From: Verrucomicrobiales bacterium
GTDB lineage: Bacteria; Verrucomicrobiota; Verrucomicrobiia; Limisphaerales; UBA11320
Direction: 5' to 3'
NCBI GenBank assembly: GCA_016793885.1
Contig: JAEUHE010000236.1
Coordinates: 15,876-79,875 of the forward strand
DNA length: 64,000 bases
Shown here in pieces: positions 8,812-40,892 of the stretch. Positions within the stretch are counted from its first letter, which is position 1; the number at the start of each line of letters is the position of its first letter. Under the pieces are notes generated by a model. The model was given only the letters and a program-made list of their open reading frames with translations. It ran no database searches and was not told the origin of the DNA. The position numbers and the translations under genes are program-made.

Positions 8812-8853
8812 CTCACAACAGCCGTCCCATCGCGCCGGCGGTGGTTGCTGCTA
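8812..8853 (-). repeat. family-B element (half copy) starting at the TAG stop of the DUF1501 gene
   Basis: The reverse complement, TAGCAGCAACCACCGCCGGCGCGATGGGACGGCTGTTGTGAG, matches 18089..18130 at 39 of 42 positions (counted by hand). The leading TAG is the stop codon of CDS 8851..10314. Confidence 0.75.
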
Positions 8854-10314: not shown

Positions 10315-10317
10315 AGG

Positions 10318-13300: not shown

Positions 13301-13557
13301 CCGGAGCTGGGCAGATCCAGCCGTAGGCCGCTCTTGCGTTTGGCGTCGTCTGGGCCATGACAGGCGAAGCAGTGGTCGGACAGGATCGGACGGATGTCAC
13401 GATTGAAATCCAATCGCGAGGCCGTGGCGGGGACGGCTTGGATAGGCCGGCTCAAGGCACAGGCCAAGAGGCCTAGGACCAGCGCCAGTGCCCCAGAGAT
13501 CGATCCTGAGCTCTGGAACCGACTTTTCGGGTTATTACGCAGCATCGATTCTATCAT
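10318..13557 (-). CDS. PSCyt1-PSCyt2(DUF1549)-LamG-PSD1(DUF1553) protein (planctomycete cytochrome c family)
   Basis: The 1079-aa ORF has a haem-binding-type motif CFACHGPDDAKRKSGLRLD and a DUF1549 block (PTPAEVDAFL ... SPHYGEKMAVEWLDAARYADTHGY). A LamG/ConA-like insert is present (FSFGAWVKPG ... VKLFVNGRE ... IRIYDRQLS). A DUF1553 block follows (VNRFWQAYFGMGLV ... HPELLDWLATEF). The start could also be ATG 13545. Confidence 0.9.
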   Translation of the reverse strand: MIESMLRNNPKSRFQSSGSISGALALVLGLLACALSRPIQAVPATASRLDFNRDIRPILSDHCFACHGPDDAKRKSGLRLDLPSSGTQPLKSGAIAIVPGKPDQSEVIKRIVTQDMDDRMPPPKSGHPLTPVQVELLTRWITEGAEYQSHWAFIRPSRTPLPQVSDPAWPRNGIDHFILSKLEEHRVKPAPEADKQTLIRRASLDLTGLPPTPAEVDAFLADTSDRAYEHLVDRLLSSPHYGEKMAVEWLDAARYADTHGYHIDSGRDMTHWRDWVIKAYNDNKPFDQFTIEQLAGDLLPQPTLDQQIASGFNRNHMINYEGGAIPEEYHAAYLMDRVNTTSTVWLGLTMACAQCHDHKYDPITMKDYYRFYAFFNNIAEKGLDGSQGNAAPVIKVMRPEQKARLQEFDATIQTAEAKLKDIESSLPSEQLAWEKRMVRDVDSPRALPQPRLRLPLDASLSGTRNDQPFSLIGDETGWTPKWADALLGQALEFDGKQTGNLRATESLDLERDQPFSFGAWVKPGAAHTGTLFSKMDSGPRLRGFDLLLSANRLHLHLIHSWPDNALRVVAKTSLPKDSWGHVLATYDGSGKASGVKLFVNGRETAVEVTHDTLTGSIANRAPFLVGKRAEEHPYRGAISDIRIYDRQLSTQEAGELASGVTRQIAQLEPDKRSAHQQQHLAAFYKLYHAPHWVQAKDAVAAAKAEREKFDKSIPDTMVMGELEKPRETFMLMRGEYDKKGEKVEAGTPGALPPLAEGLPSNRLGLAKWLVAPEQPLTARVVVNRFWQAYFGMGLVRSSENFGSQADWPTHPELLDWLATEFVASGWNVKSMQRLIVTSAAYRQRSTVSPEALELDPENKWITRGPRLRLPAESIRDQALAISGLLNPQIGGASVFPYQPPGLWEELMAREDNDRFTAQKYVQSKGPDLYRRSMYTFWKRTSPPSALGTLDAPDRQTCVVRRQRTNTPLQALLLMNDPTYVEASRKFAERLMVEASDPNARINLAYRIALSRLPTDAEKKVLSRLFDEQFQRYRSNRKAAEELLGVGESPTRPGLDPAELAAWTLVTNAILNLDETITKG

Positions 13558-23681: not shown

Positions 23682-24752
23682 TCACTCGGCGAAGCGGGCG
23701 TGGATGGCTTTCGCGATGGTGGCGAAGGCTTGGGCCGGGGCTTCCTTCGGAGCGGAAACCGTCACGGGCGTTCCTTGATCGCCACCGATCCGAATCGCGG
23801 TGTAGAGGGGGATCTCACCTAGGAACGGAAGATGAAGTCGCTCGGCCTCCGTTTTCCCGCCGCCATGACCGAAAATCTCCAGTCGCTCGTTGTTAGGGGT
23901 CACGAAATAGCTCATGTTCTCCACGAGCCCCAGAATGGGCACGTTCACTTTCTCGAACATCGCGATCCCTTTGCGGACCACTCCCAATGAAGCCTCCTGA
24001 GGCGTGGTGATCACCACCCCGCCATCCAACGGCACGGTCTGACACAAGGTCAGCTGGGCATCGCCCGTGCCGGGGGGGAGGTCGACGAGCAGGTAATCCA
24101 GGTCGCCCCAAGCTACCGAAAAAATGAACTGCTGGATCGTTTTGACGATCATGGGCCCACGCCATATGACAGGGGCGTCGCCGTCGAGCAGGAAGCCCAT
24201 GCTCATGAGCTTCACGCCGTGGTTGGAGACGGGCACGAGCTTCTCCTCGTCATTCACCGTCGGACGTTCTTTGACGCCCATCATGAGGGGAATGCTCGGG
24301 CCGTAGATGTCGCAATCCAGAAGTCCAACCTTGAGTCCCAGTTGGCTCAGCGCACAGGCGAGGTTGACGGAGCAGGTGGACTTGCCCACGCCGCCCTTGC
24401 CGCTCGCCACCGCGATGATGCGCTTGATGCCCGCCACCCGGCTCTGATTCGACCAGGGGTTTGGACCGGCAGCAGCTTGGGCTGTTCCCGCGGCAGGCGA
24501 TGGGCCGGCGGGCAGTTTGACTTCGATGTGGGTATGGGAAATGCCGGGAATCGACTTCAGCACGCGTTCGCATTCCGCTTTCAGCTGGGCCGCAATCTCG
24601 GCGTTCGGAGTCGTGAGCGCGAGCAGCAGACTGACGGCTCCCTGGTTGGCCGCTACGTTCTTGACCAGGCCAAAGGAAACGATGTCGCGGGAGTAACCAG
24701 GATATTTAACTGCTTTGAGCGCCTCGGTGATGGTGGAGGGATTCAAGTCCAT
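23682..24752 (-). CDS. apbC: Mrp/NBP35/ApbC-family Fe-S cluster carrier ATPase
   Basis: Track ORF 23682..24812. ATG 24752 (checked) gives MDLNPSTITEALKAVKYPGYSRDIVSFGLV, a DUF59/MIP18-like N-terminal domain. The deviant Walker A motif is VASGKGGVGKST. The start lies 25 nt downstream of the desulfurase stop. Confidence 0.85.
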   Translation of the reverse strand: MDLNPSTITEALKAVKYPGYSRDIVSFGLVKNVAANQGAVSLLLALTTPNAEIAAQLKAECERVLKSIPGISHTHIEVKLPAGPSPAAGTAQAAAGPNPWSNQSRVAGIKRIIAVASGKGGVGKSTCSVNLACALSQLGLKVGLLDCDIYGPSIPLMMGVKERPTVNDEEKLVPVSNHGVKLMSMGFLLDGDAPVIWRGPMIVKTIQQFIFSVAWGDLDYLLVDLPPGTGDAQLTLCQTVPLDGGVVITTPQEASLGVVRKGIAMFEKVNVPILGLVENMSYFVTPNNERLEIFGHGGGKTEAERLHLPFLGEIPLYTAIRIGGDQGTPVTVSAPKEAPAQAFATIAKAIHARFAE

Positions 24753-24777
24753 GGTGCGGTAGTCTAGTCTTAGGCGG

Positions 24778-26043
24778 TCAGTGGGCGGCTTTACCAGAGA
24801 CGGCGGCGGCATGCGCTGAAAACGACACCCCTCGGCCGGTTGGATTGATGACGGAATCGATCACTCCGCTCTCGAACTCCTCCCACATGGGCGACATGGC
24901 CCGCAGTTTGGTGACGATCTTGGAGAAGGATTCCACGACGTAGTCAACCTCCTCCTCCGTGTTGTCCTGGCCCAAAGTCATGATGATGTTTCCCTGCGCC
25001 AGGGCATGGTCGAGTCCAATGGCTGCCAACACATGCGAGATCTTCAGCGATTTGCTCACACAACTTGACCCGCTGGCCACGGCGATTCCAGCGACATCCA
25101 GGCTGAGCAGCTGTCCTTCGCCTTCAATAAACTCAGTGCTCAGGTTCAGGTTGGTGGAGATCCGCTCGGGCCCGGGCTCCGGCCCGTTGAGCTTGATGTA
25201 AGGAATCTTCTCTTTGAGCCCCTTCCATAGACGAGCTTGGAGGCGCGCCGTGTGGGCTGCGCGGGCAGGCATTTCGCGCACGGCAATCTCGGCGGCCAGG
25301 CCGCCACCAACGATTGCGGGCACATTTTCGGTTCCGGCGCGGCGTCCGCCTTCTTGGACGCCACCATGCAGGATGCTCACGAGTCGGGCTTTCCGATTCC
25401 GATACAGGATCCCGACGCCCTTGGGCCCGTAGAAACGATGCGGGGAAAAGGAGACCAGGTTGGCTCCCATGGCCTGAACATCGATGGGTAACCATCCGGC
25501 GCTGGCTTCGCAATCGACGTAGAACGGGATCGACTTCTCATTCAACAGCCGGCCGATCTCGGCGATGGGCTGGATCGTGCCAATGTCGTGGTTCACGTGG
25601 TGAACCGCCACCAGCACGGTCTTGTCGGTGAGCGCGGCAGCGACATCCGCCGGTTTGATCCGGCCTTCGGCATCGACCGGCACGCGGGTGCAGGTCCAAC
25701 CCTGTTTCTCCAGAAACTCCACCGAATTGACGACGGAGGGATGTTCGGTTGCGGAAATCACCAGGTGCTTGCCGCGACGCTCGTTCGCATAGGCAACGCC
25801 TTTGATGGCCAAGTTCGCCGACTCGGTGCCATCCGAGGTGAAGAAAATCTCTTCCTCGCTTTCGGCGTTGATCATCGCCGCGATGCGCGCGCGCGCCTTC
25901 TTGAGTGCATCCCGAACCTGAAGTCCGTAGTGATGGAGCGAGCTGGGATTGCCGAAGGCCTCGGTGAAAAAGGGTTTCATCTCCTCGAAAACCTCGGGGA
26001 GGAGGGGCGTTGCCGACTGATGATCGAGAAACACGTGTTTCAT
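24778..26043 (-). CDS. iscS: group I cysteine desulfurase (NifS/IscS type, PLP-dependent)
   Basis: The 421-aa ORF reads MKHVFLDHQSATPLLPEV...FGNPSSLHHYG. A class-V aminotransferase pattern is present. The catalytic-loop Cys is in ASGSSCVS. The C-terminal MSPMWEEF resembles the IscS LSPLWEMY tail. Confidence 0.85.
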   Translation of the reverse strand: MKHVFLDHQSATPLLPEVFEEMKPFFTEAFGNPSSLHHYGLQVRDALKKARARIAAMINAESEEEIFFTSDGTESANLAIKGVAYANERRGKHLVISATEHPSVVNSVEFLEKQGWTCTRVPVDAEGRIKPADVAAALTDKTVLVAVHHVNHDIGTIQPIAEIGRLLNEKSIPFYVDCEASAGWLPIDVQAMGANLVSFSPHRFYGPKGVGILYRNRKARLVSILHGGVQEGGRRAGTENVPAIVGGGLAAEIAVREMPARAAHTARLQARLWKGLKEKIPYIKLNGPEPGPERISTNLNLSTEFIEGEGQLLSLDVAGIAVASGSSCVSKSLKISHVLAAIGLDHALAQGNIIMTLGQDNTEEEVDYVVESFSKIVTKLRAMSPMWEEFESGVIDSVINPTGRGVSFSAHAAAVSGKAAH

Positions 26044-26242
26044 AGCTGTGTAAGGCTCTACTGCGAAGTGCCAAGGGTGACGAGAAAGTTTTTTCTTTCC
26101 TGCGGGAAGGATTCACCTTTCGCAGGTCGCGAATTGTCCTATCGGACGCAAGAATGCTCCAGCAACGGCGCGTCGAAGGCTGAGACCCCTGGAACCATCA
26201 GGTTCTCCGGGGCGTACGAAGGAGGCGAGTGGAGCTCGCGAA

Positions 26243-26665
26243 TCAGACCGTGGCTGCGGTCTTGGCGGTCTCGGTGGATTCCGGATTCTTTTTGACGTAA
26301 TCCTCGAGAGCGGCCTTGAGGGCTTCCTCGGCGAGCACCGAGCAATGGATCTTTACCGGGGGGAGGCCTCCGAGGGCATCCACGACCTCTTGATTGGAGA
26401 AGCTCATGGCCTCCTCGATAGTGCGACCCTTGATGAGTTCGGTGGCCATGCTGGAACTGGCGATCGCGGAGCCGCAGCCGAAGGTCTTGAACCGCGCATC
26501 CTCGATGCGGCCGTTCTTGATCTTCAAACTGATTTTCATGATGTCTCCGCAGGCGGCAGCGCCGACTTCGCCGATACCATCGGCGTCCTTGATGTCCCCC
26601 ATGTTGCGGGGATTCAGGAAGTGATCCATCACGGTTTGATTATACAGAGTGTAGGTTTCGCTCAT
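26243..26665 (-). CDS. iscU: Fe-S cluster scaffold protein IscU/NifU N-terminal type
   Basis: Track ORF 26243..26854, but Met64 (ATG at 26663-26665, checked) gives the canonical start MSETYTLYNQTVMDHFLNPRNMG. The three scaffold cysteines are present (AACGD, FGCGSAIASSS, IHCSVLAE). The longer version would overlap the Rrf2 gene. Confidence 0.9.
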   Translation of the reverse strand: MSETYTLYNQTVMDHFLNPRNMGDIKDADGIGEVGAAACGDIMKISLKIKNGRIEDARFKTFGCGSAIASSSMATELIKGRTIEEAMSFSNQEVVDALGGLPPVKIHCSVLAEEALKAALEDYVKKNPESTETAKTAATV

Positions 26666-26691
26666 GTGGCTTGTCCTCGTTGAAATTGTTG

Positions 26692-27165
26692 TCAGTTCTT
26701 TATTGAAAGGGCTTCGGTCGCCTCGCGGGCTTTGGCGCGCGCACGGGCGGCGCCGGCGGGAAGGTGTTTCTTTTCCAGGTCCGCAATCGTGGTGCGGGCG
26801 AAGACATCCTTCACCTGGTCCTGGGCTTGCTCGAACACGCTGCACAAGGCGCAACCTTCCTGGCGCTCACAGCTGGAGGCACTTTGAAGGCAGCGTTGGA
26901 GAGCCATCTTGCCCTCGATGGCTTCGAAGACTTCGAGGAGAGTGATCTGTTCGGCGGACCGGGCGAGGGTAAACCCGCCGCCGGAGCCGCGAACCGACCG
27001 AACCAATCCCGCTCGTGCCAGGCTCTGGAAGATCTTGCTCATGAAACTTGGCGGAGCGTCTTCCTCCTGGCTAATCTCCTCCACCATGACCGTTTGCCCC
27101 GGCGCTCGGCGCGCCAGGCAAATGAGCCCCATGGCTCCGTATTCGACTGCTCGAGTAATTTGCAT
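26692..27165 (-). CDS. Rrf2-family transcriptional regulator (IscR-like)
   Basis: The 157-aa ORF starts MQITRAVEYGAMGLICLARR and has a wHTH block (ISQEEDAPPSFMSKIFQSLARAGLVRSVRGSGGGFTLA). A Cys cluster, CLQSASSCERQEGCALC, is suited to an Fe-S ligand set. It is the first gene of the Fe-S operon. Confidence 0.85.
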   Translation of the reverse strand: MQITRAVEYGAMGLICLARRAPGQTVMVEEISQEEDAPPSFMSKIFQSLARAGLVRSVRGSGGGFTLARSAEQITLLEVFEAIEGKMALQRCLQSASSCERQEGCALCSVFEQAQDQVKDVFARTTIADLEKKHLPAGAARARAKAREATEALSIKN

Positions 27166-28654: not shown

Positions 28655-29935
28655 TTATGATTTTGGGGCCCACTCGTTCAGGGCGCGTTCGGGCAGTGAC
28701 GGTCCTTCAGCGGGCTGGAGCAGCTCGAGCGCTTGGCCGACCAGGTACAGGGAGCCTGCAATCACTGAGAGCTCGGCATCCCGGGTTGACCGCAGCGCTG
28801 CAGCTACCGTGTCCGCCTTTTCGATGCGGAGTTGTGGGGCACGCGATCGACAGAAGGGCTCGAGTTCATCCGGTGTGGCGGTGCGGTTGCTGTCCACCCG
28901 CACCAAAACCAGTCGCTTCATGAGCGGGAGCAGGACCTCGATCATGGTTTCCCAAGCTTTATCCTTGAGCACTCCGAGGACGAAGACAGCCTGTTGACCT
29001 GGGTATTCTGATTCCAGTGTGTCCCGAAGCACTTGGGCTCCATCCGCGTTGTGTGCACCATCTAAAATATGGATGGTTCGGGGGGAGGCGACCCGCTGAA
29101 ACCGGCCCGGCCAGGTCGTCTGTTCGAGCCCTTGCTTTCGGGCCGCCAGCGAGACGGGCAGCTGATGGTTGAGCGTTTCGACGGTGGCCAGTGCGACGGA
29201 AGCGTTCTGCCGCTGGTGCGGGCCTGGCAACGGAAGCTGGACGCCATGGAGCCCCGGTGACTCGGCCGTTTCCGTGGTCAGCAGACGCAGTGGGGCGCTC
29301 TTCAACCGGCAAACCTCCCGCAAAACCAGTTCCACCTCCGGTTGCTGGGGGGCGCTGACACAGGGGATGGCTGGTTTGATGATCCCGGCTTTCTCGGCGG
29401 CGATCTTGGCCACCGTGTCTCCGAGCCATTGCTGGTGATCGAGGCCGATGCGCGTGATCACGCTCGCCAAAGGAGTGACAATGTTCGTGGCGTCCAACCG
29501 ACCTCCGAGGCCGGTTTCCCAGACCACCACATCGCAGCGCTCGTCTGCAAAGTGGAGCAGGGCCATGAGGGTTACCACCTCGAAGAACGTCGGATGATCC
29601 GGCTCGCTCAGTTTCGTCAAGGCTGGCCGTATTCGGTTCAACAGATCCACCACTGCTGCTTCCGGCAGAAGCCGACGGTTGATCTGGATGCGCTCGCCGA
29701 AGTGCACAAGGTGGGGTGAGGTGAAGAGGCCCACCTTGAGTCCACTCGCCCGATACATGCTCTCCAGGAAGGCACAGGTTGAGCCTTTGCCGTTGGTTCC
29801 TGCCACATGGATGAAACGCAGCCGTTCCTGCGGTGAACCCAGTTCGGCCGCGAGTTGGACGGTGCGTTCCAGTCCAAGTCGCATGCTGAACTGGCCCAAC
29901 CCGTGGAGGAATTGGATCGCTTCCTGATAGGTCAT
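28655..29935 (-). CDS. folC: folylpolyglutamate synthase / dihydrofolate synthase (Mur ligase family)
   Basis: The 426-aa ORF has a P-loop (HVAGTNGKGST), then FTSPHL and GLGGRLDATN motifs and a C-terminal Mur-ligase domain. ATG checked at 29933-29935, 43 nt downstream of the megasynthase stop. Confidence 0.8.
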   Translation of the reverse strand: MTYQEAIQFLHGLGQFSMRLGLERTVQLAAELGSPQERLRFIHVAGTNGKGSTCAFLESMYRASGLKVGLFTSPHLVHFGERIQINRRLLPEAAVVDLLNRIRPALTKLSEPDHPTFFEVVTLMALLHFADERCDVVVWETGLGGRLDATNIVTPLASVITRIGLDHQQWLGDTVAKIAAEKAGIIKPAIPCVSAPQQPEVELVLREVCRLKSAPLRLLTTETAESPGLHGVQLPLPGPHQRQNASVALATVETLNHQLPVSLAARKQGLEQTTWPGRFQRVASPRTIHILDGAHNADGAQVLRDTLESEYPGQQAVFVLGVLKDKAWETMIEVLLPLMKRLVLVRVDSNRTATPDELEPFCRSRAPQLRIEKADTVAAALRSTRDAELSVIAGSLYLVGQALELLQPAEGPSLPERALNEWAPKS

Positions 29936-29978: not shown

Positions 29979-32900
29979 TTAGCCGAGCTTGTCGATGCGT
30001 GACTTGAGCTCGGTCGCCAGCAGCTGGACGTAGGGTTCGACCAACATGGCGTGGGGATTCACGGGTAGTTCGACCGGATCGATTCCACCCTTGGCTAGAT
30101 CCCCCCAGCCCATCTTGGGATCTGGGTAGTAGTCGTAATTAACCTTAGGTTTGAAGAGCGTGAGGGTGCCGGCATAGGGCTTCGGCTCGTAGCGATCGCA
30201 GGCAGCGTCGTTGCTCGCCTGGACGGAAGCCTCGCGAAGTTGTGTGGGTTCGTCGGAACCCGGGGATGCCGGCTCGGCCGGCCCTTTGCGACTCAGGAGG
30301 TTCGCCAGTTCCCCGTCCCGCGCGACCCGGGCCTTCTCCTTGATGTATTTGACCATTTCGCCCGGGCTGAGCTTCACGAAGTTTCCGACGTGGAACTTCA
30401 TTTTCTGCAAGAGGTGGCTGGTTGAATTCGTTTTGAGTGCGAGCCCGAAATTGTAGGTGTCGAGCATCGCCAATAGCCTGGTGGTCTCACCGGCCTTCAG
30501 AAGCATCTGGGCCATCTCGTAGGCGATGGTTCCGCCCATGCAATATCCGCCCAGCAAGTAGGGGCCCTTGGGCTGGATTTTCCGAACTTCTTTGAGATAG
30601 AGCGCCGCCATTTCTTCGAGGCTGTTAAGCGGGGGCGTTTTCGCGTCGAGTCCCTGCGACTGCAAGCCGTAGAGCGGGTAGTCCGGCGCTAGGTGTCGGG
30701 CCAGAGCCTGATAGAGCAGGACATTGCCGCCGGCTCCGTGGACTAGGAACAGCGGGCGCTTGTTGCCGCGAGGTTGAATGGGCACCAGCGGCGACCAGTT
30801 CTCGTCCGTTGACTCCTCCACCTCACCGGTCAGCGCTCGAGAGAGTTGTTCGATGGTTGGTGATTTGAACAGCGTGGCGAGCGGCAGTTTCTTGCCGAAT
30901 TCCTTTTCGATCCTCGCGAAGAGGGCGACGGCACGGAGCGACTGTCCGCCCAGGTCGAAGAAATTGCTCCGGATGCTGATTCGCTCCAGCTTGAGGATCT
31001 CGCTCCAGATCTGGGCTAGTTTCTTTTCGGTCGCGTTCCGCGGAGGTACGAAGTCGTCCGCGGTATGGTCCTGGCTCGGTCCGGGATGCGGCAAAGCCCG
31101 GCGGTCGATCTTCCCATTCGGCGTTTGGGGCAGCTTGGGCAGAACCACGAAATGACACGGAACCATGTATTCGGGCAGGCTGGCTCGGAGGAGAGCTTTG
31201 AATTCTGCGCGGGCGCTGGCCTCGTCGAGTGATCCTGGTCCCCCGTTGGGCACGATGTAGGCAACGAGGGCCGGGTGTCCGGGAGACTCATCGGTTAGAA
31301 TCACGGCGGCTTCCTTGAGTTTGGGGGAGGTCAGCAGCACGGTTTCGATTTCACCCAGTTCAATGCGATGTCCCCGAAGCTTGACCTGAAAATCGATGCG
31401 GCCGAGGCATTCAATTTCCCCGTTCGGGAGGAAACGAGCCAGGTCGCCGGTGCGATAGACTCGCGGGCTTGAAGCGGAGCTGAAGGGATTGGGAATGAAC
31501 TTCTCCTCGGTCAGCGCCGAACGGTTGCGATAGCCGCGCGCCAGGCCCAGACCTCCGATCAGCAACTCTCCGGCAACGCCGATGGGGACCGGCTGGAGTT
31601 GGCTGTCCACGATATAGGTCTGGGTATTGGCTATGGGCTTTCCTATGGAGATGGGCTGGTCCTTCTTCAGTTGGACGGCAGTGGACCAGATCGTGGTTTC
31701 CGTTGGACCGTAAACGTTCCAGAGGGATCCGCAGCGGCTCAGGAGTTTTTCTGCCAGATCGGCGGCCATCGGTTCTCCCCCGCAGAGCAACTTAAGCTTA
31801 GGACCGCCCCGCCAATTTGAGGCGGCCAGCATGCGCCAGGTTGTGGGTGTCGCCTGCGCCAGGGTGATTCCGGTGCGGCTGATCAGGTCACTGAGGATGG
31901 CCGGATCGAGGGCGGCAGTCCGCGGAGCGATCACGATCTTGGCCCCGCTGATTAACGGCAAGAACACCTCCAGGCCCGCGATATCGAAAGAGAGCGTGGT
32001 CAAGGCCAAGACCACATCTTCTGGAGTGATCCCCGGCTGCCGCCGCATGGAGATCAGGAAGTTGGCGAAGGCGCGATGGGTTATTTCTGCGGCCTTCGGG
32101 GTTCCTGTGCTTCCTGAGGTGTAAATGGCATAGGCAAGGTCATCTGGATGAATCGGGCGCGAAACGGGACCCTGGCTTTCCGCTAGCAGCGCATCGCGTT
32201 GGCCATCCATGGATATGACTCGGATCTTGGTGGAGCCCAGTCGAGCCTGGAGGGATTGTTGCGAGAGGACGATCTTGGCCCCGGAGTCGCTGAGCATCGA
32301 CGTGATGCGCGCGGTGGGCACCTCGGGATCGATCGGCACATAGGCGGCTCCTGCTTTGAGGATGCCAAGCAACCCGATCACCATATCCAAGGAGCGCTCG
32401 AGGCAAACCGCCACCACCGAGTTGGGAGCGGCCCCTACTTTCGCCAAGTGGTGAGCCACCTGATTCGACCGTGCATCCAGTTCGGCGTACGAGAGCCGCT
32501 GGCCCTCGAACTCCACCGCAACCCGCTTGGGCGTCTGTCGTGCTTGCACGGTGCAGAGTTCAACCACGCTCGCCTGCTCCGGCAATTCCAGCGTGGTTTG
32601 GTTCCATTCGACCAGGATCTGGTGCCGCTCGGCCTGATTCAACAGGGAGAGCTGGCCAATCGGAGTCGCCGGGTCTGCGACGATCGATTCCAAAAGAGTT
32701 TGGAAATGTCCGACCCAGCGGCGGATCGATTCCGCATCGAACATGTTGCGGTTGTAATCGCACTCCACCAGGAGGTGATCGCCCTCGTCGACCAGGTTAA
32801 AGCCGAGGTCGTATTGGAAGAAGAAGCGGGGCCCCGCCGTGATCTTCTGACTGAGTCCGGAGAACCTGACCTTGTTGAGCGGCGGGTCCAGGTTAAAGAG

Positions 32901-35900
32901 CACGGAAGCCAGTGGGATACGGCTGGGATCGCGCGGGATGTCCAGTTTTTGAGCGATGGATCCGAATGTGGTGTTCCAGTTTTCCTGGGTGTCGAGGACC
33001 AACCCCAGAGCGTTCTTCAGAAGTGTGTTGAAAGGTTCCGCTGGGTTTACCGCAGCCCGAAGCGGCAGCGTGTGCACGCATTGCCCCACCAGCGTTTCGC
33101 TGCCCATGGCGCTCTGGCCTGCATACGGCACACCAATCACGATGTCGTTCAGCCCGCTTAGGCGATGCAGCCAAACCTGATAAGCGCCCAGCAGCAGCGC
33201 GAAGGGGGTGTTGCGTTGCGACTGCGCAGTTTTCTTGATGGACTGGAAGAGACTGGCAGGCAGGCGCAAGCTGTGGCGCTCGCCTTCATAAGTGCGGTTC
33301 TTGGGGCGCGGGCGGTAAGAGGGCAGATCCAGCGGCGCGGGGACATCGGGAAATCTGGCCAGCCAGAAGGCCTCCGACTGAACGGCGATCTCCTGTTGTT
33401 CGGGGCGGCCGAGCCACTCCGCATAGTTGCGCATGGGGACGATCGGACGCAGGGAGGGGACACGATCCTCCACATAGGCCGAATACAGCTCACTGATCTC
33501 CTCTAGCACGACGTTGTAGCCCCATCCGTCGCAGACAATCATGTTCAGGCTGAACACCAGCATGTGCTCGGATTGGGACAACTTGATGATATGGAAGGTG
33601 ACCAACGGCCCTTCATTCAGATCATAGAGCCGCTGTCCCTCCTGTTGGAGAATCTGGGCCGTTTCCGATTCTCGTTCGACTTGAGGCAGGTCGCTGAAAT
33701 CATGGACCGGCACATCGATCGTGATCGACGGGTGGATCAGGATGCACATGCCGTCGGCACTGAAGGTGGATCGAAGCGCCTCATGGCGGTCGATGATCTG
33801 GTGGATGGCGCGGCGCAGGCACTCGATGTTGAGCGGCCCGCGCAACTGCACGACATTGCTGGCATTGAACGCGCCGGAGGCCTCCGGCTGAATCTGCGTC
33901 GAGAGCCACATCTCCTTCTGGGAATCGGTCAGGGAGCAGCTTCTGGTTCCGGGTGGCAGGCCGGGAATTTCCTGGGTGTCCGGGCGCGTGCGGGCAGAGA
34001 CCGTGGTCGGGGTGGCACCCGAGGGCGGAGGAGTGGGTGCTCCCGGGGGAAGCGTTGCCTGCGTGCTCGCGATCTGCGCGAATTCAGCATCGCTGGTGCC
34101 GGGCAGGAAGCCGCCCAATTGCATCTCGGCGACCGCCTCCTTAAACGCCCGCGAAACGTAACTCAGATCCGCCTCGGTGTGTGCCAGTGTGAAATAGCAG
34201 GGCCTCCCTTCCCAGACATGAACCCCCTTCAAGCGCATGAAGTACCAGAGCAGGCTGATGAACTCGAGGTCATGCGCGTGTTCGATGTTCGCGAATGCGC
34301 AGAAGTGCGGGAAACGGATGGGTACCTGGTTACGTTCGAAGTATTGGTTCAACTCCGTGCAGAATTTGGTCACTCGGTCCGTGATGCCTAACTGAAGCTG
34401 CGGGCCTTCTTGCTGGAGTTTCTTCAGGATGGTCCAAGCGGCACGGATCGCCAAGGGATGTCGGACGAACGTTCCTGCAAAGAACGTGACGCCCACTTCG
34501 GGGAAGGAATCATCACCGTAGTTCCAGGCGCCGCCATCGAGCGCGTCCATATATTGACGCTTGCCGGCCAGGACTCCGATTGGGATGCCTCCCCCAATGA
34601 CTTTGCCGTAGGTCGCCATATCCGCTTCCACACCAAAATACGCCTGCGCGCCGCCCGGGTGGCAGCGGAAACCGGTGACCACTTCGTCGAAGATGAGCGC
34701 GGCTTCGGCGTCGCGCGTGATCTGGCGCAGCGCCTTCATGAACTCCTTCGGCTGGAGCCCCGGGGAGCGGCTCTGAACAGGCTCGACCAAGACGGCGGCG
34801 ATCTCGTGGATGTGGGCTTTGATGACCTCGAGCGACTCAGGGACGCCGTACTCGAGGATCAGCATGTTCTCGACGAGGCTGGACGGGATTCCCGGGGCGA
34901 TGGCCTGGGCTCGGTATTCCCCGTTGACCCAGGCGCCGCGAACGAGCACCTCCTCGAACATCCCGTGGTAATCGCCCGTGAAGTAAACCACCCGTTTGCG
35001 ACCGGTGATGGTGCGCGCGAGCCGGATCGCGGCCATGACCGCTTCGGAGCCAGTGTTGCAGAAGGTGGCGCGGTCCATCCCGGTGAACTCGCAGATCATT
35101 TTCGCCACCTCACCGGCCAGGGCTGACTGTGGCCCGATTTCTATGCCGGTATCCAGCTGGTCGTGCAGCGGCTGGATGAGCCAGTCGGGCGAATGCCCGA
35201 AGAAGTAAGTGCCGAACCCCATCGTGATGTCGACATACTCGTTCCCATCGAGATCCCAGATTCGGGAGCCCTTGGAGCGCGTGGACACAATGGGGTAGAC
35301 CATCTCCTTCCAATTGCGCTTGAACCCGGCGACAGCCCGGGGGTCGGCGAAGTGCGGCCGGTGCTCGGCGGTGTACTTCTTGGAGCCGCCAGTTTTCGCC
35401 TGGTATCGGGCGAGTAGCTGATTGAGCGCTCCCTCCTGAACGGCGGTTAGACCACCTTTCTGTCCCTTCTCGATGGGCTTGTAGGGGCCGAAGCGTTTAA
35501 ATTCCTGCTGGGCCGTCGCCACGGCGTGGGCGGGAGGTTTCGCTCCCGGCCAGCGAATGGTTGGTAATGAGCTGGCTGGACTTCCGGACGTGCTCGTCCC
35601 TGCGGGGATGGCGGCCGGTGTGGGCGCAACCTGGCCCTTCTGCTGGGCCAGTAGCAGCTGCATGAGCTGGATCTGTTGAGCCATCAACTGCTCCATCATG
35701 TTGCCGCCGGCAGGCGCCGCAGCAATCGGAGTCGCGTTGAGCGGCGAGGAATTCATGCTCAGTGCTGTCGGCGGTGGCGTGGCCGCCGGGGCTGCTGAGG
35801 CACTGGCGGCCGGCGTGACCGGAGCGGGAGCGGGAAGCGCGTCGGCGGGCAGCTTGTTGTCAATGTAGCTGGCCAGGGCGTCGACGCTCGAGAGATCCCC

Positions 35901-38900
35901 CAGCATCTGTCGGAAAGTGAGCTTGAGGTTGAATTTTTGCTGAAACGCCTGGCTGGCTTGCGTCAGGAACAAGGAGTCGAAGCCCAGTTCCATGAAGGAG
36001 GCGCTATCGTTTGTGACATCGACTCCCGAGAGCTCTTTCACGATCGCGCGCAGTTGCACTGCAATTCGATTGCGGCGCGGCTCGGCGGGGGGAAGGGCGG
36101 GCACAGACATAACAACAGGGGGAGGAGACACGCTGGCGGGCGGAATCGCGATCGTTGGCGACGTCGCTGGCATCGGCGACGCCAGGGGGAGGGGGGCTGG
36201 CATCGCTGGGACGGAGACTGGGATGGAAACCGGGGCTGGGCCCGCTGAGGCTGCCGGGTTTACCGGTGCGACCCAGAACCGCTGACGTTCGAATGGGTAG
36301 GTGGGCAGGGCGACCCGTCGGCGGGACTCTTCGCGACTAAAGTCACTCCACCCGACACGAACCCCGCTCGCCCAGAGTCGGCCGAGCGCACTCAGCATCG
36401 AGTTGAGATCTCGGCCAGGGGCATCGGTCGGACCCAAACTGCCTGCGATGACGAGCCCAGAGGGCTTCGCCGGATGCTGCCGAGCCAGCTGGCTCAAGGT
36501 TTGTCCGGGACCGATCTCCAGAATAATGTTCTTCTCATCCCTGATCACCGTTTCCAGGGCCTCTACAAATCGAACTGATTGGCGAAGTTGTTTTGCCCAG
36601 TAGGTGCCATCCTGCAGGTCGCTTGGTGACAATGCCCGGCCGGTGCAGGTGGAGATCCAAGGCAATTGAGGAGCTTGATGGGGAGTCTTCGCTGCCAGTG
36701 CGGTGAACTCGGCCAGCATGGGATCCATCATGGACGAGTGGAAGGCATGCGAGGTGGGGAGGAAGCGAGAGGCGATCTTCTTCGCTTCGAGCGTTTTCTG
36801 GAATTCCTCGAGCGTGGGAGTTGGACCCGCCACGGTGCACAGCTTGGGACTGTTAAACGCCGCGATCGAGGCGTCACGAGGAAGGAGGGGTGCCGTTTCT
36901 TCGCCGCTTAGCCGAACCGCCAGCATGGATCCTGCGGGTAGGCTCTGCATGAGCTTGGCTCGCGAGGCAAGGAGGTCCAAAGCGGCTTCCAGAGTGAAGG
37001 TCTCAGCCAGAACGGCGGCGACGTACTCGCCGATGCTATGTCCGATGAGTAGGCTGGGCTTAATTCCCCACGAGAGCCAGAGCTGGGCAAGGGCATATTC
37101 CACCACAAAGATGGAAGGCTGGGTGATCCAGGTTTTATTGATCTCTGTCTCCGCCGCCGGGCGCTGGTCTGGCGAAGGATAGAGGACGCGCCTAATATCC
37201 AGTCCCAGGCGGTTCTGGAGAATGCTGGCGCATTGATCGATCGCTGCGCGAAAGGCGCTTTCGGTTTCGTAGAGTTCCCGCCCCATGTCGACGTATTGAG
37301 CCCCCTGTCCGGGAAACAGAAATACAACCGAGGGTTCGGCTGAGGATGCTTTCGATTGGTGATCCGTCTTGGCATCGGGTTGGCGGAGATGAGCTGATGC
37401 CTCCTGGTGGTTGGAGACCACGACGGATCTGCGGTAGGTAAAGCCTTTGCGGCCCTGCTGCAACGTGAAAGCGACATCGGGCAAGGGCACGGAGGGGGAG
37501 GCGTCCAGGAACGCCGCCAGCCTCTCAGACATGGCGCGAAGGGCTGTTTCGGTCTTGGCCGAAAGAACGAGCAGCTGTTGCCGGCGTGATGGGCCGCCGG
37601 GTGTTCGGAGGGGGGCTTCCTCTACGATCACATGGGCATTGGTGCCGCCGACACCGAAAGCGCTTACGCCGGCTCTTCGCGGCTGGGCCCCCCGCTTCCA
37701 TTCCAGCGGACGGGTGACTGGATAGAATGGGCTGTTGGCAAAGTCGATTTTTGGATTGGGTGCCTTGAAATGGAGCAGCGGCGGGATCAATTCGTGCTGC
37801 AGCTGCAGCACTGTCTTGATCAGCCCGGTGGCGCCTGCAGCCACGTCCAGATGTCCGATGTGAGTCTTTCCGGTGCCGATCGCGCAGAATCCCACTTTGG
37901 TGGATCCGCCCTCACGAAAGGCTTTGGTCAAAGCGGTGATCTCGATCGGATCGCCGAGGGGCGTTCCGGTTCCGTGGGCCTCGATGTAGGAAATCGATTC
38001 CGGATCCACGCCGGCGGCGGCCTGAGCCAACGCGATGACATCGGCCTGGGCGTTGATGCTGGGCGCGGCATATCCGATCTTGGCTGAACCATCATTGTTG
38101 ATGGCGGTTCCTTTGATGACCGCGAGCACCTGGTCTCCATCGGCCACCGCATCGGCGAGCCGTTTGAGCAGAACGACCGCCACTCCATGACCGAAAACGG
38201 TTCCGTGCGCGGAAGCGTCGAAGGTTCGGCAAGTGCCATCGCCGGAAACCATGCCTTCCTCCTGATAGAGGTAGTTGCGCTTTTGCGGGAAGCTGATCGA
38301 GGATCCACCGGCCAGCGCCATGTCGCACTGGTAGGTCAGCAAGCTGGTGCAAGCTTGGCTGATCGCCACCAAGGAGGTTGAGCACGCGGTTTGGATCGAC
38401 ATGCTTGGTCCGCGCAGGTTCAGCTTGTAGGACACCCGAGTGGGAAGGAAATCCTTGTCGTTCCCGAGCATCACCTGATAGGCACCCACCTGATAGTTGC
38501 CCGAGAAGTTGGCGGCGAACTCCCGGTCTCGGCACAGGTTGCTGAGCAAGTAGGTATTCAGGCTCAACCCACCGTACACGCCGATCATTCCGGGGTACGA
38601 CTCCGGATCGTAGCCAGCTCCCTCGATGGCTTCCCAGGAGCATTCGAGGAACAGGCGGTGCTGCGGATCCATGATCTCAGCCTCCTTGGGATAGATCCCG
38701 AAGAAAGCCGCGTCAAATTGGTCGACCCCTTCGAGTATGCCCCGGGCGGCGACAAATTTCTGGCCCTGCGCCTTGGCCTCCGGGCTCGCCACCGAAAATT
38801 CTAGTTCCTCCTCCGAGAACACGGAGATGGTCTCACGGCCCGCCATCAGATTGTCCCAGAACTCTTGGACTGACCGCGCCCCGGGGAAGCGGCCGGACAT

Positions 38901-38957
38901 GCCCACAATGGCGATGCCTTCGAGTTGGCTTGGATCGATTGAAGTATTACTGGACAT
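29979..38957 (-). CDS. hybrid PKS-NRPS megasynthase: KS-AT-ACP-aminotransferase(class III)-C-A-PCP-TE
   Basis: 2992 aa; residue numbers below come from hand counting. KS aa ~13-440 (TACSTSL with Cys192, EAHGTGT, GHLDVAAG). AT ~545-860 (GHSIGE, HAFH). ACP ~965-1035 (LGFDSL). Aminotransferase ~1195-1615 (NTGSEAVMAAIRLAR, DEVVTGFR, YGKVIGGG). C ~1675-2100 (RHEALRSTF; C3 reads NMIVCDG). A ~2130-2620 (YTSGSTGTPKA, NVYGPTETT, YRTGDLARF, PNGKIDRRAL). PCP ~2645-2710 (FFDLGGQSL). TE ~2730-2992 (LVHGAGGN, GGYCMGG). Confidence 0.9.
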   Translation of the reverse strand: MSSNTSIDPSQLEGIAIVGMSGRFPGARSVQEFWDNLMAGRETISVFSEEELEFSVASPEAKAQGQKFVAARGILEGVDQFDAAFFGIYPKEAEIMDPQHRLFLECSWEAIEGAGYDPESYPGMIGVYGGLSLNTYLLSNLCRDREFAANFSGNYQVGAYQVMLGNDKDFLPTRVSYKLNLRGPSMSIQTACSTSLVAISQACTSLLTYQCDMALAGGSSISFPQKRNYLYQEEGMVSGDGTCRTFDASAHGTVFGHGVAVVLLKRLADAVADGDQVLAVIKGTAINNDGSAKIGYAAPSINAQADVIALAQAAAGVDPESISYIEAHGTGTPLGDPIEITALTKAFREGGSTKVGFCAIGTGKTHIGHLDVAAGATGLIKTVLQLQHELIPPLLHFKAPNPKIDFANSPFYPVTRPLEWKRGAQPRRAGVSAFGVGGTNAHVIVEEAPLRTPGGPSRRQQLLVLSAKTETALRAMSERLAAFLDASPSVPLPDVAFTLQQGRKGFTYRRSVVVSNHQEASAHLRQPDAKTDHQSKASSAEPSVVFLFPGQGAQYVDMGRELYETESAFRAAIDQCASILQNRLGLDIRRVLYPSPDQRPAAETEINKTWITQPSIFVVEYALAQLWLSWGIKPSLLIGHSIGEYVAAVLAETFTLEAALDLLASRAKLMQSLPAGSMLAVRLSGEETAPLLPRDASIAAFNSPKLCTVAGPTPTLEEFQKTLEAKKIASRFLPTSHAFHSSMMDPMLAEFTALAAKTPHQAPQLPWISTCTGRALSPSDLQDGTYWAKQLRQSVRFVEALETVIRDEKNIILEIGPGQTLSQLARQHPAKPSGLVIAGSLGPTDAPGRDLNSMLSALGRLWASGVRVGWSDFSREESRRRVALPTYPFERQRFWVAPVNPAASAGPAPVSIPVSVPAMPAPLPLASPMPATSPTIAIPPASVSPPPVVMSVPALPPAEPRRNRIAVQLRAIVKELSGVDVTNDSASFMELGFDSLFLTQASQAFQQKFNLKLTFRQMLGDLSSVDALASYIDNKLPADALPAPAPVTPAASASAAPAATPPPTALSMNSSPLNATPIAAAPAGGNMMEQLMAQQIQLMQLLLAQQKGQVAPTPAAIPAGTSTSGSPASSLPTIRWPGAKPPAHAVATAQQEFKRFGPYKPIEKGQKGGLTAVQEGALNQLLARYQAKTGGSKKYTAEHRPHFADPRAVAGFKRNWKEMVYPIVSTRSKGSRIWDLDGNEYVDITMGFGTYFFGHSPDWLIQPLHDQLDTGIEIGPQSALAGEVAKMICEFTGMDRATFCNTGSEAVMAAIRLARTITGRKRVVYFTGDYHGMFEEVLVRGAWVNGEYRAQAIAPGIPSSLVENMLILEYGVPESLEVIKAHIHEIAAVLVEPVQSRSPGLQPKEFMKALRQITRDAEAALIFDEVVTGFRCHPGGAQAYFGVEADMATYGKVIGGGIPIGVLAGKRQYMDALDGGAWNYGDDSFPEVGVTFFAGTFVRHPLAIRAAWTILKKLQQEGPQLQLGITDRVTKFCTELNQYFERNQVPIRFPHFCAFANIEHAHDLEFISLLWYFMRLKGVHVWEGRPCYFTLAHTEADLSYVSRAFKEAVAEMQLGGFLPGTSDAEFAQIASTQATLPPGAPTPPPSGATPTTVSARTRPDTQEIPGLPPGTRSCSLTDSQKEMWLSTQIQPEASGAFNASNVVQLRGPLNIECLRRAIHQIIDRHEALRSTFSADGMCILIHPSITIDVPVHDFSDLPQVERESETAQILQQEGQRLYDLNEGPLVTFHIIKLSQSEHMLVFSLNMIVCDGWGYNVVLEEISELYSAYVEDRVPSLRPIVPMRNYAEWLGRPEQQEIAVQSEAFWLARFPDVPAPLDLPSYRPRPKNRTYEGERHSLRLPASLFQSIKKTAQSQRNTPFALLLGAYQVWLHRLSGLNDIVIGVPYAGQSAMGSETLVGQCVHTLPLRAAVNPAEPFNTLLKNALGLVLDTQENWNTTFGSIAQKLDIPRDPSRIPLASVLFNLDPPLNKVRFSGLSQKITAGPRFFFQYDLGFNLVDEGDHLLVECDYNRNMFDAESIRRWVGHFQTLLESIVADPATPIGQLSLLNQAERHQILVEWNQTTLELPEQASVVELCTVQARQTPKRVAVEFEGQRLSYAELDARSNQVAHHLAKVGAAPNSVVAVCLERSLDMVIGLLGILKAGAAYVPIDPEVPTARITSMLSDSGAKIVLSQQSLQARLGSTKIRVISMDGQRDALLAESQGPVSRPIHPDDLAYAIYTSGSTGTPKAAEITHRAFANFLISMRRQPGITPEDVVLALTTLSFDIAGLEVFLPLISGAKIVIAPRTAALDPAILSDLISRTGITLAQATPTTWRMLAASNWRGGPKLKLLCGGEPMAADLAEKLLSRCGSLWNVYGPTETTIWSTAVQLKKDQPISIGKPIANTQTYIVDSQLQPVPIGVAGELLIGGLGLARGYRNRSALTEEKFIPNPFSSASSPRVYRTGDLARFLPNGEIECLGRIDFQVKLRGHRIELGEIETVLLTSPKLKEAAVILTDESPGHPALVAYIVPNGGPGSLDEASARAEFKALLRASLPEYMVPCHFVVLPKLPQTPNGKIDRRALPHPGPSQDHTADDFVPPRNATEKKLAQIWSEILKLERISIRSNFFDLGGQSLRAVALFARIEKEFGKKLPLATLFKSPTIEQLSRALTGEVEESTDENWSPLVPIQPRGNKRPLFLVHGAGGNVLLYQALARHLAPDYPLYGLQSQGLDAKTPPLNSLEEMAALYLKEVRKIQPKGPYLLGGYCMGGTIAYEMAQMLLKAGETTRLLAMLDTYNFGLALKTNSTSHLLQKMKFHVGNFVKLSPGEMVKYIKEKARVARDGELANLLSRKGPAEPASPGSDEPTQLREASVQASNDAACDRYEPKPYAGTLTLFKPKVNYDYYPDPKMGWGDLAKGGIDPVELPVNPHAMLVEPYVQLLATELKSRIDKLG

Positions 38958-38966
38958 GCAATTCCT

Positions 38967-40892
38967 TTAGCGTCGCCCGCGTTTGTTAGCCGCCGCGAGC
39001 GCTTCGCGTTGACGACGAGCCCTATCTTGGAGCGTGGCATTTCCGGCCGCCGCTGCGTGGGGAAGACCTAGAAACTCTGCTTGAGTGCGGACCGTGGTAG
39101 CGGCGAAAAGCTGCGTCAATGGGAACTCGCGTCCGACCAGGGCCTGCAGGCGCGTATGGAGTTGCGCCAACCGGATCGAATCCCCATCGACGTCGAAAAA
39201 GCTGATGTCGTGCCTGACATCGGATCGCGACAGAATCTCCCTCCACAGCGCTGCGATCTGGCCCTCCAGGTTCCCTCCGTTGGGGACAGGGGCCGAAGGT
39301 GAAGCGTCCGGTGCGGCGCGCTCGGCCAAAGCCCGGCGATCCACCTTCCCGTTCGGGGAGAGGGGAAACGAGTCCAGCACGCTCAGGGTCGACGGGACCA
39401 TATAATCCGGTAGCCTGTCCCGTAGAAACTGTTTCAGGCTGGCCGAGTCGGCCGACGCGCCATCCTTGAGTGTCACGTAGGCGGCGAGGGACTGCGCGCC
39501 TTCGTTCTCTTGGCGCCGGCAGGCGACCACCACGGGTTCGCGCACGGAAGGATGAAGCTGGAGCGCGTTTTCGATTTCACGCAACTCGACGCGGTAGCCT
39601 CGAACCTTGACCTGATGGTCCAGGCGTCCCAGGAACTCGATCACCCCGTCGGGGAGCCAGCGCGCCTGATCCCCCGAGCGATAGATAAGACTTCCTTCGA
39701 TCTCGGGCAGGGGGTTGGCGATGAAGCGCTGCTGGGTGAGGGTGGTATCATTGACGTAGCCAGCGCCTATCCCGGTTCCGCCGATGCAGAGTTCCCCCGG
39801 CGTTCCAATGGGACAGGGCCGAAGCTCGGGATCCAAAATTGCGATCTGGGCATTGTAGATGGGGCGGCCCAGTGGAACAAAGTCGTAACGGTCCAGGTTG
39901 TCACGAGTAAGCCGGTAGAAGCCGCAGATGTCGGTGCACTCCGTGGGGCCGTAGGTGTTCGCGACTTCGGCTCGTGACTTGGGATGAGTGATCCAGGTGC
40001 GCAACCGGGGTATCGAGATCGGTTCCCCGCCCAGACATACCACGCGCAAGGAACTGAGTCGGTTGGCCGTTTCTTCGGTGAACGGCTCGATCAATGGGTA
40101 GAACGCGCTGGGCGTGCAGTTGATGTAGGTGATCCCGTGTCGGGCGATCAGGCGTCCAAGCAGGGAGATATCATAAGGGCCCGGTGGATAGAGATGCAGG
40201 GTGCCACCCCGGATCAGCGGCGCATAGAGATTCTTTTGAGTCAGGTCGAAGCTAAGGGAACTGACCAGCAGCACGTGGTCCCGACTGTCGAAGTTGAACT
40301 CGGAGACGAACCAATGGATGAGGTTCGTAAATCCACGATGATAGACAGCTGCCCCTTTGGGAGCTCCGGTGGAACCGGACGTGAAGATCACGTAGATGAG
40401 ATCATCTGGAGTGGAGCCGGGCGTGGGGTTGTCGCTGCACTCCGAAGCAAATGCCGCGTCGCTCTCGTTCAGAGTCATTAACTCCAGATCAGGTCGGGAG
40501 GAAAACCTTCCCGCCAAGGCAGGGGAAGTCAGCAGCAGACGCAGCCTTGAACCTGAGATCATCGCGTCCAGCCGTTCGGCGGGGTAGGTGGGATCCAACG
40601 GAACGTAGGCACCGCCCGCTTTCAGAATCGCGTAGATGCCGACCAGCACCTCAATCGACCGCTCGAGTGAAACTCCGACCAGAGAATTGGCCTGAACGCC
40701 TTTCCGACGGAGGGCATGGGCCAGTTGGTTCGCCCGTCGGTTGAGCTCGCTGTAGGTGAGCGTCTTACCCTCAAACTCGACCGCCACCGCCTGGGGTGTT
40801 CGAGCGACCTGCTCCTCGAAAAGCTGGTGTACGCAGGCATGCCGGGGCCAATCAACCCGGGTGGCGTTGCTCTGAATACGTGGGTCGCTCAT
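38967..40892 (-). CDS. stand-alone NRPS loading module: adenylation domain + peptidyl carrier protein (A-T)
   Basis: The 641-aa ORF has the A-domain core motifs LTYSELNRRANQLA, LKAGGAYVPLDP, FTSGSTGAPKG, NTYGPTECT, GELCIGGTGIGAGY, YRSGDQARW and SPNGKVDRRAL. The carrier motif is FFDVDGDSIRLAQL. Its stop lies 9 nt before the KS gene ATG, which is preceded by AAGGA. Confidence 0.9.
   Translation of the reverse strand: MSDPRIQSNATRVDWPRHACVHQLFEEQVARTPQAVAVEFEGKTLTYSELNRRANQLAHALRRKGVQANSLVGVSLERSIEVLVGIYAILKAGGAYVPLDPTYPAERLDAMISGSRLRLLLTSPALAGRFSSRPDLELMTLNESDAAFASECSDNPTPGSTPDDLIYVIFTSGSTGAPKGAAVYHRGFTNLIHWFVSEFNFDSRDHVLLVSSLSFDLTQKNLYAPLIRGGTLHLYPPGPYDISLLGRLIARHGITYINCTPSAFYPLIEPFTEETANRLSSLRVVCLGGEPISIPRLRTWITHPKSRAEVANTYGPTECTDICGFYRLTRDNLDRYDFVPLGRPIYNAQIAILDPELRPCPIGTPGELCIGGTGIGAGYVNDTTLTQQRFIANPLPEIEGSLIYRSGDQARWLPDGVIEFLGRLDHQVKVRGYRVELREIENALQLHPSVREPVVVACRRQENEGAQSLAAYVTLKDGASADSASLKQFLRDRLPDYMVPSTLSVLDSFPLSPNGKVDRRALAERAAPDASPSAPVPNGGNLEGQIAALWREILSRSDVRHDISFFDVDGDSIRLAQLHTRLQALVGREFPLTQLFAATTVRTQAEFLGLPHAAAAGNATLQDRARRQREALAAANKRGRR

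Follow-up and report, generated by a model that had tools for sequence, protein, structure and literature searches.

What kind of chain release is carried out by a terminal thioesterase (TE) whose nucleophile elbow holds a cysteine instead of the usual serine? This question is raised by a hybrid polyketide synthase-nonribosomal peptide synthetase (PKS-NRPS) encoded in a 64,000-nucleotide stretch of a Verrucomicrobiales bacterium genome (assembly GCA_016793885.1, contig JAEUHE010000236.1, positions 15,876 to 79,875), here called the window. All coordinates refer to the window, and both genes of the assembly line, with all their domains, lie on its minus strand. To our knowledge, only a handful of Cys-dependent TEs have been characterized, and in each of them the Cys enables a release that Ser cannot perform. 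The initial annotation of the locus had described such enzymes as rare and as tied to strained rings, and had named ObiF and SulM as the published cases. The data presented below indicate that Cys2806 of the megasynthase very probably serves as nucleophile in a functional type I TE, which belongs to a conserved Cys clade and is not ObiF/SulM-like. Taken as a whole, our reading, in which this clade Cys carries the chain as a thioester acyl-enzyme that is released by aminolysis, has about an even chance of being correct.

The cysteine nucleophile and its clade

The megasynthase (29979..38957, 2992 residues) ends in a type I TE domain (residues 2722-2992, 29982..30794). Pfam identifies it as PF00975 (E 4.9e-29, above the cut-off), located directly after the PP-binding domain of the peptidyl carrier protein (PCP, residues 2646-2709). 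The codons 30548-30534 were re-read as GGA TAT TGC ATG GGC, which confirms the annotated G-Y-C-M-G with TGC at 30542-30540. This TGC (30540..30542) encodes Cys2806 (Cys85 in TE numbering), the nucleophile in GGYCMGG, whose sequence context within the final 271 residues of the open reading frame (ORF) is KGPYLLGGYCMGGTIAYEMA. In a HMMER alignment to solved TEs, Cys2806 shares a column with the catalytic Ser of Skyxy-TE (7CRN), EntF, Pks13, fatty acid synthase (FAS) and NocB, and the same column is occupied by a Cys in AB3403 of Acinetobacter baumannii (GGWCFGG). In an AlphaFold2 model of the domain, calculated from 35 homologues (predicted local distance difference test, pLDDT, 91; predicted template modelling score, pTM, 0.89), Cys85 follows strand 79-84 and precedes helix 86-100, and is thus located on the nucleophile elbow. 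A Foldseek search with the domain gave only type I TEs as its top matches: Skyxy-TE, AB3403, GbnD6, NocB, Pks13, FAS, Vlm2 and EntF. The annotated location of the Cys on the elbow of a terminal type I TE is thus borne out by both the alignments and the model. The domain is 86% identical to its closest relative, and is as conserved as the ketosynthase (KS) and aminotransferase domains of the same protein.

The triad acid is Asp2833 (GAC, 30459..30461; Asp112 in the TE), found 27 residues after the Cys at the canonical position I. In the model it directly follows strand 105-111 (beta6). An acid is present at position 112 in all 120 clade sequences. Position 221, which follows beta7, varies within the clade, and the conservation of Asp225 reaches no more than 73%. 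The histidine is less straightforward. The His of the NPHAML motif, put forward in the initial annotation as the candidate triad His, is His2969 (His248 in the TE, 30051..30053), on the loop following strand 238-243 and past the last core strand. The canonical GDH His column is occupied by Pro247 in the window and by Pro in 116 of the 120 clade sequences, and His248 stands one residue beyond it. Residue 248 is His in 41 of the 120, including the window and all its orthologues, and is otherwise Ala, Arg, Lys or Gly. An Arg at this site is always accompanied by Glu112 (20/20), a co-variation that points to a contact between the two positions like that of the canonical Asp-His pair. The candidate for a second or alternative catalytic His is His2856 (His135 in the TE, KFHVG, 30390..30392) in the first lid helix, which is kept in 115 of the 120 sequences. 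A loop His that is displaced from its column and present in about a third of the clade compares poorly with this near-invariant lid His, which makes the NPHAML assignment doubtful. A loop His is also absent from some cyanobacterial distant relatives, which carry the elbow GHCFGG.

Conservation of the Cys was followed at three levels. All 119 close database homologues covering the motif have a Cys, in an elbow that reads GYC[MLGV]GG or GFC[ML]GG. It is present in all 22 independent orthologous loci, from at least five phyla, encoded by TGC in 16 and by TGT in six, with synonymous changes in the neighbouring codons. A representative library of 1.84 billion proteins, clustered at 50%, gave 3,674 matches at E<=1e-30, and among the library representatives listed, each of the 118 clade members of at least 40% identity has the Cys. 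Given the 119 homologues, the 22 loci with both codons and the 118 representatives, Cys2806 is not the result of chance or of a sequencing error. Such invariance across phyla, maintained with either codon, argues for selection on the Cys itself, and this selection appears to be strong.

A genome scan, limited to one genome for each species, gave 80 loci. All those with a TE at least 52% identical carry the Cys, with the same architecture wherever the contig is long enough. A Cys-TE within this architecture was found in Verrucomicrobia, in Pirellula and other Planctomycetes, in Ignavibacteria, Bacteroidota and Myxococcales. An exact look-up of the 2992-residue protein gave no record and the 90%-clustered protein database contained only megasynthase fragments below 1000 residues; full-length architectures were found among the representatives clustered at 50% and on genome contigs.

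Alternation of Ser and Cys is confined to relatives below about 45% identity. In a neighbour-joining (NJ) tree of TE domains, roughly eight Ser/Cys switches were counted in the wider family and none in the clade of the window; this tree is rough, with long branches, and was used only to tell multiple switches from their absence. The free alternation among orthologues that the initial annotation had named as a counter-argument was therefore not seen. The clade of the TE is large, is made up of Cys enzymes only, has the signature GYC[M/L]GG and is spread over several phyla; in it, the Cys is the rule and not the exception. The TE of the window bears all the marks of this clade: the GYCxGG elbow, the acid at 112, the lid FH (His135), Lys154, Trp230, Pro247 and Pro254. 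The rarity ascribed to Cys-TEs holds among characterized enzymes, as they make up about 2% of known TEs (PMC13288461), but not within this clade. The closest aminotransferase relatives with a second NRPS module (L005, L006, L026 and L029) end in a Ser-TE.

The clade and its distant relatives also occur in other settings. In a metagenome-assembled genome of Bryobacterales (GCA_026954325.1, locus L002/L003, 10001-14203), a stand-alone PCP-TE has the Cys and no loop His (YPASML). A second PCP-TE two genes away has a Ser (GYSLGG), and the cluster further contains free-standing adenylation (A) domains, FemAB-like proteins, ATP-grasp enzymes and aminotransferases. It is a different orphan pathway that uses the same TE clade. 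Two Cys-TE domains per protein or locus are found in the distant relatives L033 (Coleofasciculaceae), L041 and L059 (both Verrucomicrobiia), P0251, P0253, P0257, P0271, P0328 and P0336, some with a TE in the middle of the line, e.g., C-A-TE-C-A-C-PCP-TE, where C is a condensation domain.

The two-gene assembly line

The megasynthase can be divided, on the basis of its translation, Pfam domains and motifs, into KS, acyltransferase (AT), acyl carrier protein (ACP), aminotransferase, C, A, PCP and TE. The KS (37767..38921) has the motifs TACSTS and HGTGT, and the AT (36474..37325) has GHSIGE and HAFH, the latter of which we take to be the malonyl-type motif. The phosphopantetheine attachment motif of the PKS ACP, GFDSL, lies at 35970..35984. 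It is followed by a class III aminotransferase (34272..35297; PF00202, E 7e-45) with its pyridoxal phosphate (PLP) lysine in YGKVIGGG. This domain corresponds to the beta-amino-forming module that the initial annotation had placed upstream of the TE, and is expected to turn the beta-keto group of the chain into a beta-amino group. Homologues of the aminotransferase occur in PKS/NRPS contexts, one of them named iturin-family synthetase A. The KS, AT and ACP motifs and the aminotransferase lysine are all intact in the window.

The chain is probably started by the second gene (38967..40892), which encodes a loading module of 641 residues made of an A domain and a PCP (Pfam AMP-binding, AMP-binding_C and PP-binding). 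The protein was also considered as a fatty-acyl-AMP ligase. This was rejected on its match to NCBIfam TIGR01733, amino acid adenylation domain, at 419 bits against a cut-off of 317. Specificity codes of this and the other A domains were read on an alignment in which the GrsA control gave DAWTIAAICK. The loader code, which led to no substrate assignment, is DLKNCGTDIK in the window, DLKNFGTDIK in the Pirellula loci (L019 and L020) and DLKNVGSDIK in L005, and the codes of the Opitutaceae and Ignavibacteria orthologues are Pro-like and Thr. These differences suggest that the starter amino acid varies within the family.

The NRPS module begins with a C domain (32613..33938; PF00668, E 5.8e-78), in which the C3 motif NMIVCDG (33525-33545) replaces HHxxxDG, as seen in its alignment to shhilldg of LgrA. 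With 84% identity to the closest relative, the domain as a whole is conserved. The following A domain, A2 (31110..32549), has all its core motifs intact and the code DILQLGVIWK, which predicts glycine; among PDB entries, it is matched best by Gly module 2 of LgrA. The same Gly code, in the form DILQLG[LMV][IV]WK, was found in 40 of the 49 clade representatives that have an adjacent A domain, and the Ser-type relatives have other codes. The A2 code is identical to that of the closest relative at 10 of 10 positions, although the two A domains are only 64% identical overall. This makes A2 the fastest-evolving domain of the window protein, as the KS, aminotransferase, C, PCP and TE domains reach 84-90%. 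The PCP (30831..31022) carries its attachment Ser in LGGQSL (30936-30953).

None of the neighbours of the two core genes is conserved beside the orthologous clusters, and the cluster therefore essentially consists of these two genes. Other clusters of the family add a 326-residue protein, a TylF-like methyltransferase or a phosphopantetheinyl transferase (PPTase). The gene adjoining the megasynthase downstream (28655-29935, minus strand), which resembles a Mur ligase in Pfam, was examined as a possible tailoring enzyme and rejected: it matches TIGR01499 at 387 bits and encodes FolC, a housekeeping protein. Further along the minus strand, at 23682-26854, lies an iron-sulfur assembly set with an Mrp/NBP35-type ATPase, a class V aminotransferase (cysteine desulfurase-like) and a NifU-like scaffold.

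The rest of the window contains two giant predicted surface proteins of 2610 and 2028 residues, both encoded on the plus strand (634-8466 and 55891-61977). They have multiple lamin-tail (LTD) domains, and CotH kinase-like, cadherin/Ig and Laminin_G_3 domains. A 1409-residue protein with four CHRD domains is encoded at 51089-55318. Two pairs of PSCyt/PSD1 (DUF1549/DUF1553) and DUF1501 genes, which are typical of Planctomycetes-Verrucomicrobia genomes, are located on the minus strand at 8851-13557 and 42726-47038. Along with the best matches, from Luteolibacter and Verrucomicrobiales, these pairs and the giant LTD/CotH proteins suggest a verrucomicrobial genome.

Release of the chain

From the order of these domains, a route to the TE can be proposed. 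The A-PCP protein would load an amino acid, and KS-AT-ACP would extend it with malonate. The aminotransferase would then convert the beta-keto group into an amine, giving a 3,4-diaminoacyl chain, to which C-A(Gly)-PCP would add glycine. Transthioesterification, aided by Asp2833 and by His2969 or His2856, would transfer the chain from the thiol of the PCP to Cys2806, and the resulting acyl-enzyme thioester would be resolved by an amine and not by water. In the simplest case, the 3-amino or 4-amino group of the chain itself would attack, forming a 7- or 8-membered lactam (e.g., 1,4-diazepane-2,5-dione). Alternatively, an external amine would attack, and an amide would be released. We infer the structure of the chain from established PKS/NRPS logic; aminolytic release and the size of the ring are likewise deduced.

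The chemical argument for aminolysis is that thioesters are far more reactive than oxoesters towards amines, and not towards water (PMC11536411). Because thioesters favour aminolysis over hydrolysis in this way, and because an unhindered glycyl oxoester would hydrolyse readily, release by an amine is a plausible use of the Cys. By analogy with the characterized Cys-TEs, we tentatively favour release by aminolysis or lactam formation, with somewhat less assurance than an even chance.

Several observations weigh against this proposal. The A2 domain is decayed or missing in about half of the orthologues. The P-loop is destroyed, and Asp235 or Lys517 is lost, at L001, L009, L011, L013-L015, L017, L018 and L020, and some representatives (P0246-P0248) have no A2 at all and keep the PCP and the Cys-TE. 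Together with the fast evolution of A2, this makes the addition of Gly, and thus the substrate of the TE, uncertain. The C domains of all orthologues have (Q/N)MxxCDG, so that the HH catalytic motif is gone; it is kept in the next relatives beyond the orthologues. With an HH-less C domain and a labile A2, Gly may not be added in every case. Without this addition, the substrate of the TE would be the beta,gamma-diaminoacyl chain, from which a gamma-lactam or, less likely, a beta-lactam is possible. The catalytic His also appears ambiguous between His2969 and His2856. The clade furthermore terminates lines that have no aminotransferase (C-A-PCP-TE, C-PCP-TE and PCP-TE), and the Cys may simply be inherited with the clade and have no special role in the pathway of the window. 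No product is known for any clade member, and a literature search for such clusters in Planctomycetes and Verrucomicrobia found nothing specific. Finally, the macrolactam-forming enzymes BulbE-TE and MacB-TE, which are compared below, fall in other TE clades than that of the window.

Plain hydrolysis is the most probable of the rival explanations. The linear (3,4-diaminoacyl)-glycine acid would be set free, and the Cys would be a clade legacy that has no chemical consequence. The same Cys clade ends many different short lines, some of which have an aminotransferase and some of which do not, Ser and Cys have been exchanged about eight times in the wider family (as far as the rough NJ tree can tell), and oxoesters and thioesters hydrolyse at similar rates according to the rationale cited above (PMC11536411). 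Selection on the Cys, as suggested by its exceptionless presence across phyla with both codons, argues in the other direction. In addition, a Cys-to-Ser mutation has altered the outcome in every Cys-TE tested so far (PMC6668435, PMC11536411, PMC13288461). We therefore regard hydrolysis as rather unlikely, though it deserves to be taken seriously.

A more far-reaching version of aminolytic release would consider the GYC[M/L]GG TEs as a distinct mechanistic class. Catalysis would use the Cys and the lid His2856, the loop His would be dispensable, and the enzymes would be dedicated to Gly-terminated short chains released as small or medium lactams or amides. With the HH-less C domain of the window family, the TE might even cyclize the beta,gamma-diaminoacyl chain directly to a gamma- or beta-lactam. 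This extension is speculative and, in our opinion, unlikely.

In thiolases and ketosynthases, Claisen chemistry proceeds through Cys thioesters, and a carbon-carbon bond formed on the glycyl thioester by a Claisen- or Dieckmann-type reaction, or another non-canonical release such as an oxazolone leading to an electrophile, can be imagined for the Cys-TEs as well. Such a release would agree with the tight coupling of the Cys-TE to Gly, both in the clade and in AB3403. In Ac-505, a metabolite that depends on AB3403, the bond between the acyl chain and a Gly-derived unit is reported to be neither N- nor O-linked, and the molecule is reported to resemble a glutathione adduct of an electrophile (PMC5376624). 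The argument is, however, purely analogical, the structure of Ac-505 comes from mass spectrometry (MS) alone, and the aminotransferase of the window removes the beta-keto group on which a Dieckmann reaction depends. A non-canonical release of this kind is improbable.

The four-membered ring suggested by the initial annotation, i.e., a beta-lactam formed by the beta-amino group or a beta-lactone as in ObiF and SulM, is still less probable, and we would be surprised to find it. It was prompted by the combination of a Cys nucleophile with an upstream beta-amino-forming domain. If C and A2 were bypassed, a possibility hinted at by the orthologues whose A2 is dead or absent, the TE could receive a beta,gamma-diaminoacyl thioester, on which the beta-amine could in principle close an azetidinone; the gamma-amine of the same chain would close a five-membered ring much more readily. 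The likeness to ObiF and SulM did not withstand comparison. The TE of the window has its Asp at position I instead of II, has no Gly at position I, and has Tyr-Cys-Met where Gln-Cys-Asn would be expected for SulM. Neither enzyme was found at E<=0.01 in a sequence search with the TE alone, and both are outside the top 50 fold matches of Foldseek. With a profile of PCP-TE, ObiF1 is matched at 2e-17, compared to 1e-57 for AB3403. The intact A2 with its Gly code also implies that the residue bound to the TE lacks a beta-nucleophile, so that a beta-lactone or beta-lactam by the logic of ObiF and SulM would not be available. The last rival is an artefact, whether a misread Ser codon or a TE in decay. 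A single substitution separates TGC from TCC and AGC, which encode Ser, and other domains of the family do decay. The probability of an artefact is nevertheless negligible, as every independent assembly has the Cys, both codons are used, the TE has 86% identity to its closest relative and the ORF is intact.

Aminolytic release from the clade Cys thus remains our preferred reading, and its significance lies at the level of the clade. The TE of the window is a variant of the known Cys-TE kind, located in an orphan two-gene pathway. Around it stands a whole Cys-TE clade that has no characterized member and is widespread in Verrucomicrobia, Planctomycetes, Acidobacteria, Ignavibacteria and Bacteroidota. 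Its points of note are the coupling to a Gly module, the unusual arrangement of histidines and the partner C domain that lacks HH. If a compact two-gene pathway such as that of the window were solved, a chemistry could be assigned to the clade, and the product of the AB3403 system of A. baumannii, a system associated with biofilms and virulence, would probably be explained as well. The TE might also serve as a small cyclase in making short peptide-polyketide lactams.

Comparison with known systems

The nearest solved relative of the TE is AB3403 (ABBFA_003403/A1S_0115, PDB 4ZXH/4ZXI) from A. baumannii. It is the best PDB match, at 2.4e-25 with a single sequence, aligned almost over the full length, and, by a wide margin, at 1e-57 with the clade profile. 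Like the TE of the window, AB3403 has a Cys nucleophile and the canonical Asp 27 residues further on (C1137/D1164; PMC11298585), and it activates Gly within a C-A(Gly)-PCP-TE module (PMC5376624, PMC11298585). The identity between the two TEs is only about 27-30%, and AB3403 differs in keeping the canonical GDH His and in lacking the lid His. Its donor is a fatty acyl-ACP, and neither a PKS nor an aminotransferase is present.

ObiF-TE (obafluorin beta-lactone) and SulM-TE (sulfazecin beta-lactam) share with the TE of the window a GxCxG elbow with its Cys, and the chain that they carry is likewise short. In both, the Asp is relocated to position II, a RifR-like shift, and position I is a Gly; SulM has the Gln-Cys-Asn motif and an arginine-rich pocket (PMC6668435, PMC11298585). 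The beta-nucleophile is part of the C-terminal residue, which is a beta-hydroxy amino acid or 2,3-diaminopropionate in these systems (PMC6668435, PMC11298585), whereas glycine is predicted for the window.

A second group of Cys-TEs comprises BulbE-TE (bulbiferamide) and MacB-TE/PmxB-TE (macolacin/polymyxin), which we compare from their published descriptions only. According to the papers, the Asp is found 27 residues after the Cys (C961/D988 and C89/D116), as in the window. BulbE-TE and MacB-TE use Cys, Asp and His and make ordinary macrolactams (PMC11536411, PMC13288461). The association of Cys-TEs with strained rings made in the initial annotation is consequently incomplete: it applies to ObiF and SulM, but is too narrow for the group as a whole. 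In BulbE-TE and MacB-TE, the Cys is required for the N-acylating cyclization, and the Cys-to-Ser mutants only hydrolyse (PMC11536411, PMC13288461). Unlike the line of the window, these systems close large rings from long peptides whose C-terminal residue is not Gly. The theme common to the Cys-TEs is that a poor or demanding nucleophile, usually a nitrogen, attacks a thioester acyl-enzyme.

With regard to the assembly line itself, the closest parallels are McyE and MycA (ItuA), which have the same order of KS-AT-ACP-aminotransferase-C-A-PCP and the same class III aminotransferase. In the microcystin and iturin pathways, the aminotransferase domain yields a beta-amino acyl chain, which is passed to an NRPS module. 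McyE and MycA start from a fatty or phenylalkyl acid. The line of the window is predicted to start from an amino acid instead, and it differs further in its single NRPS module followed by a Cys-TE and in a C domain that lacks HHxxxDG.

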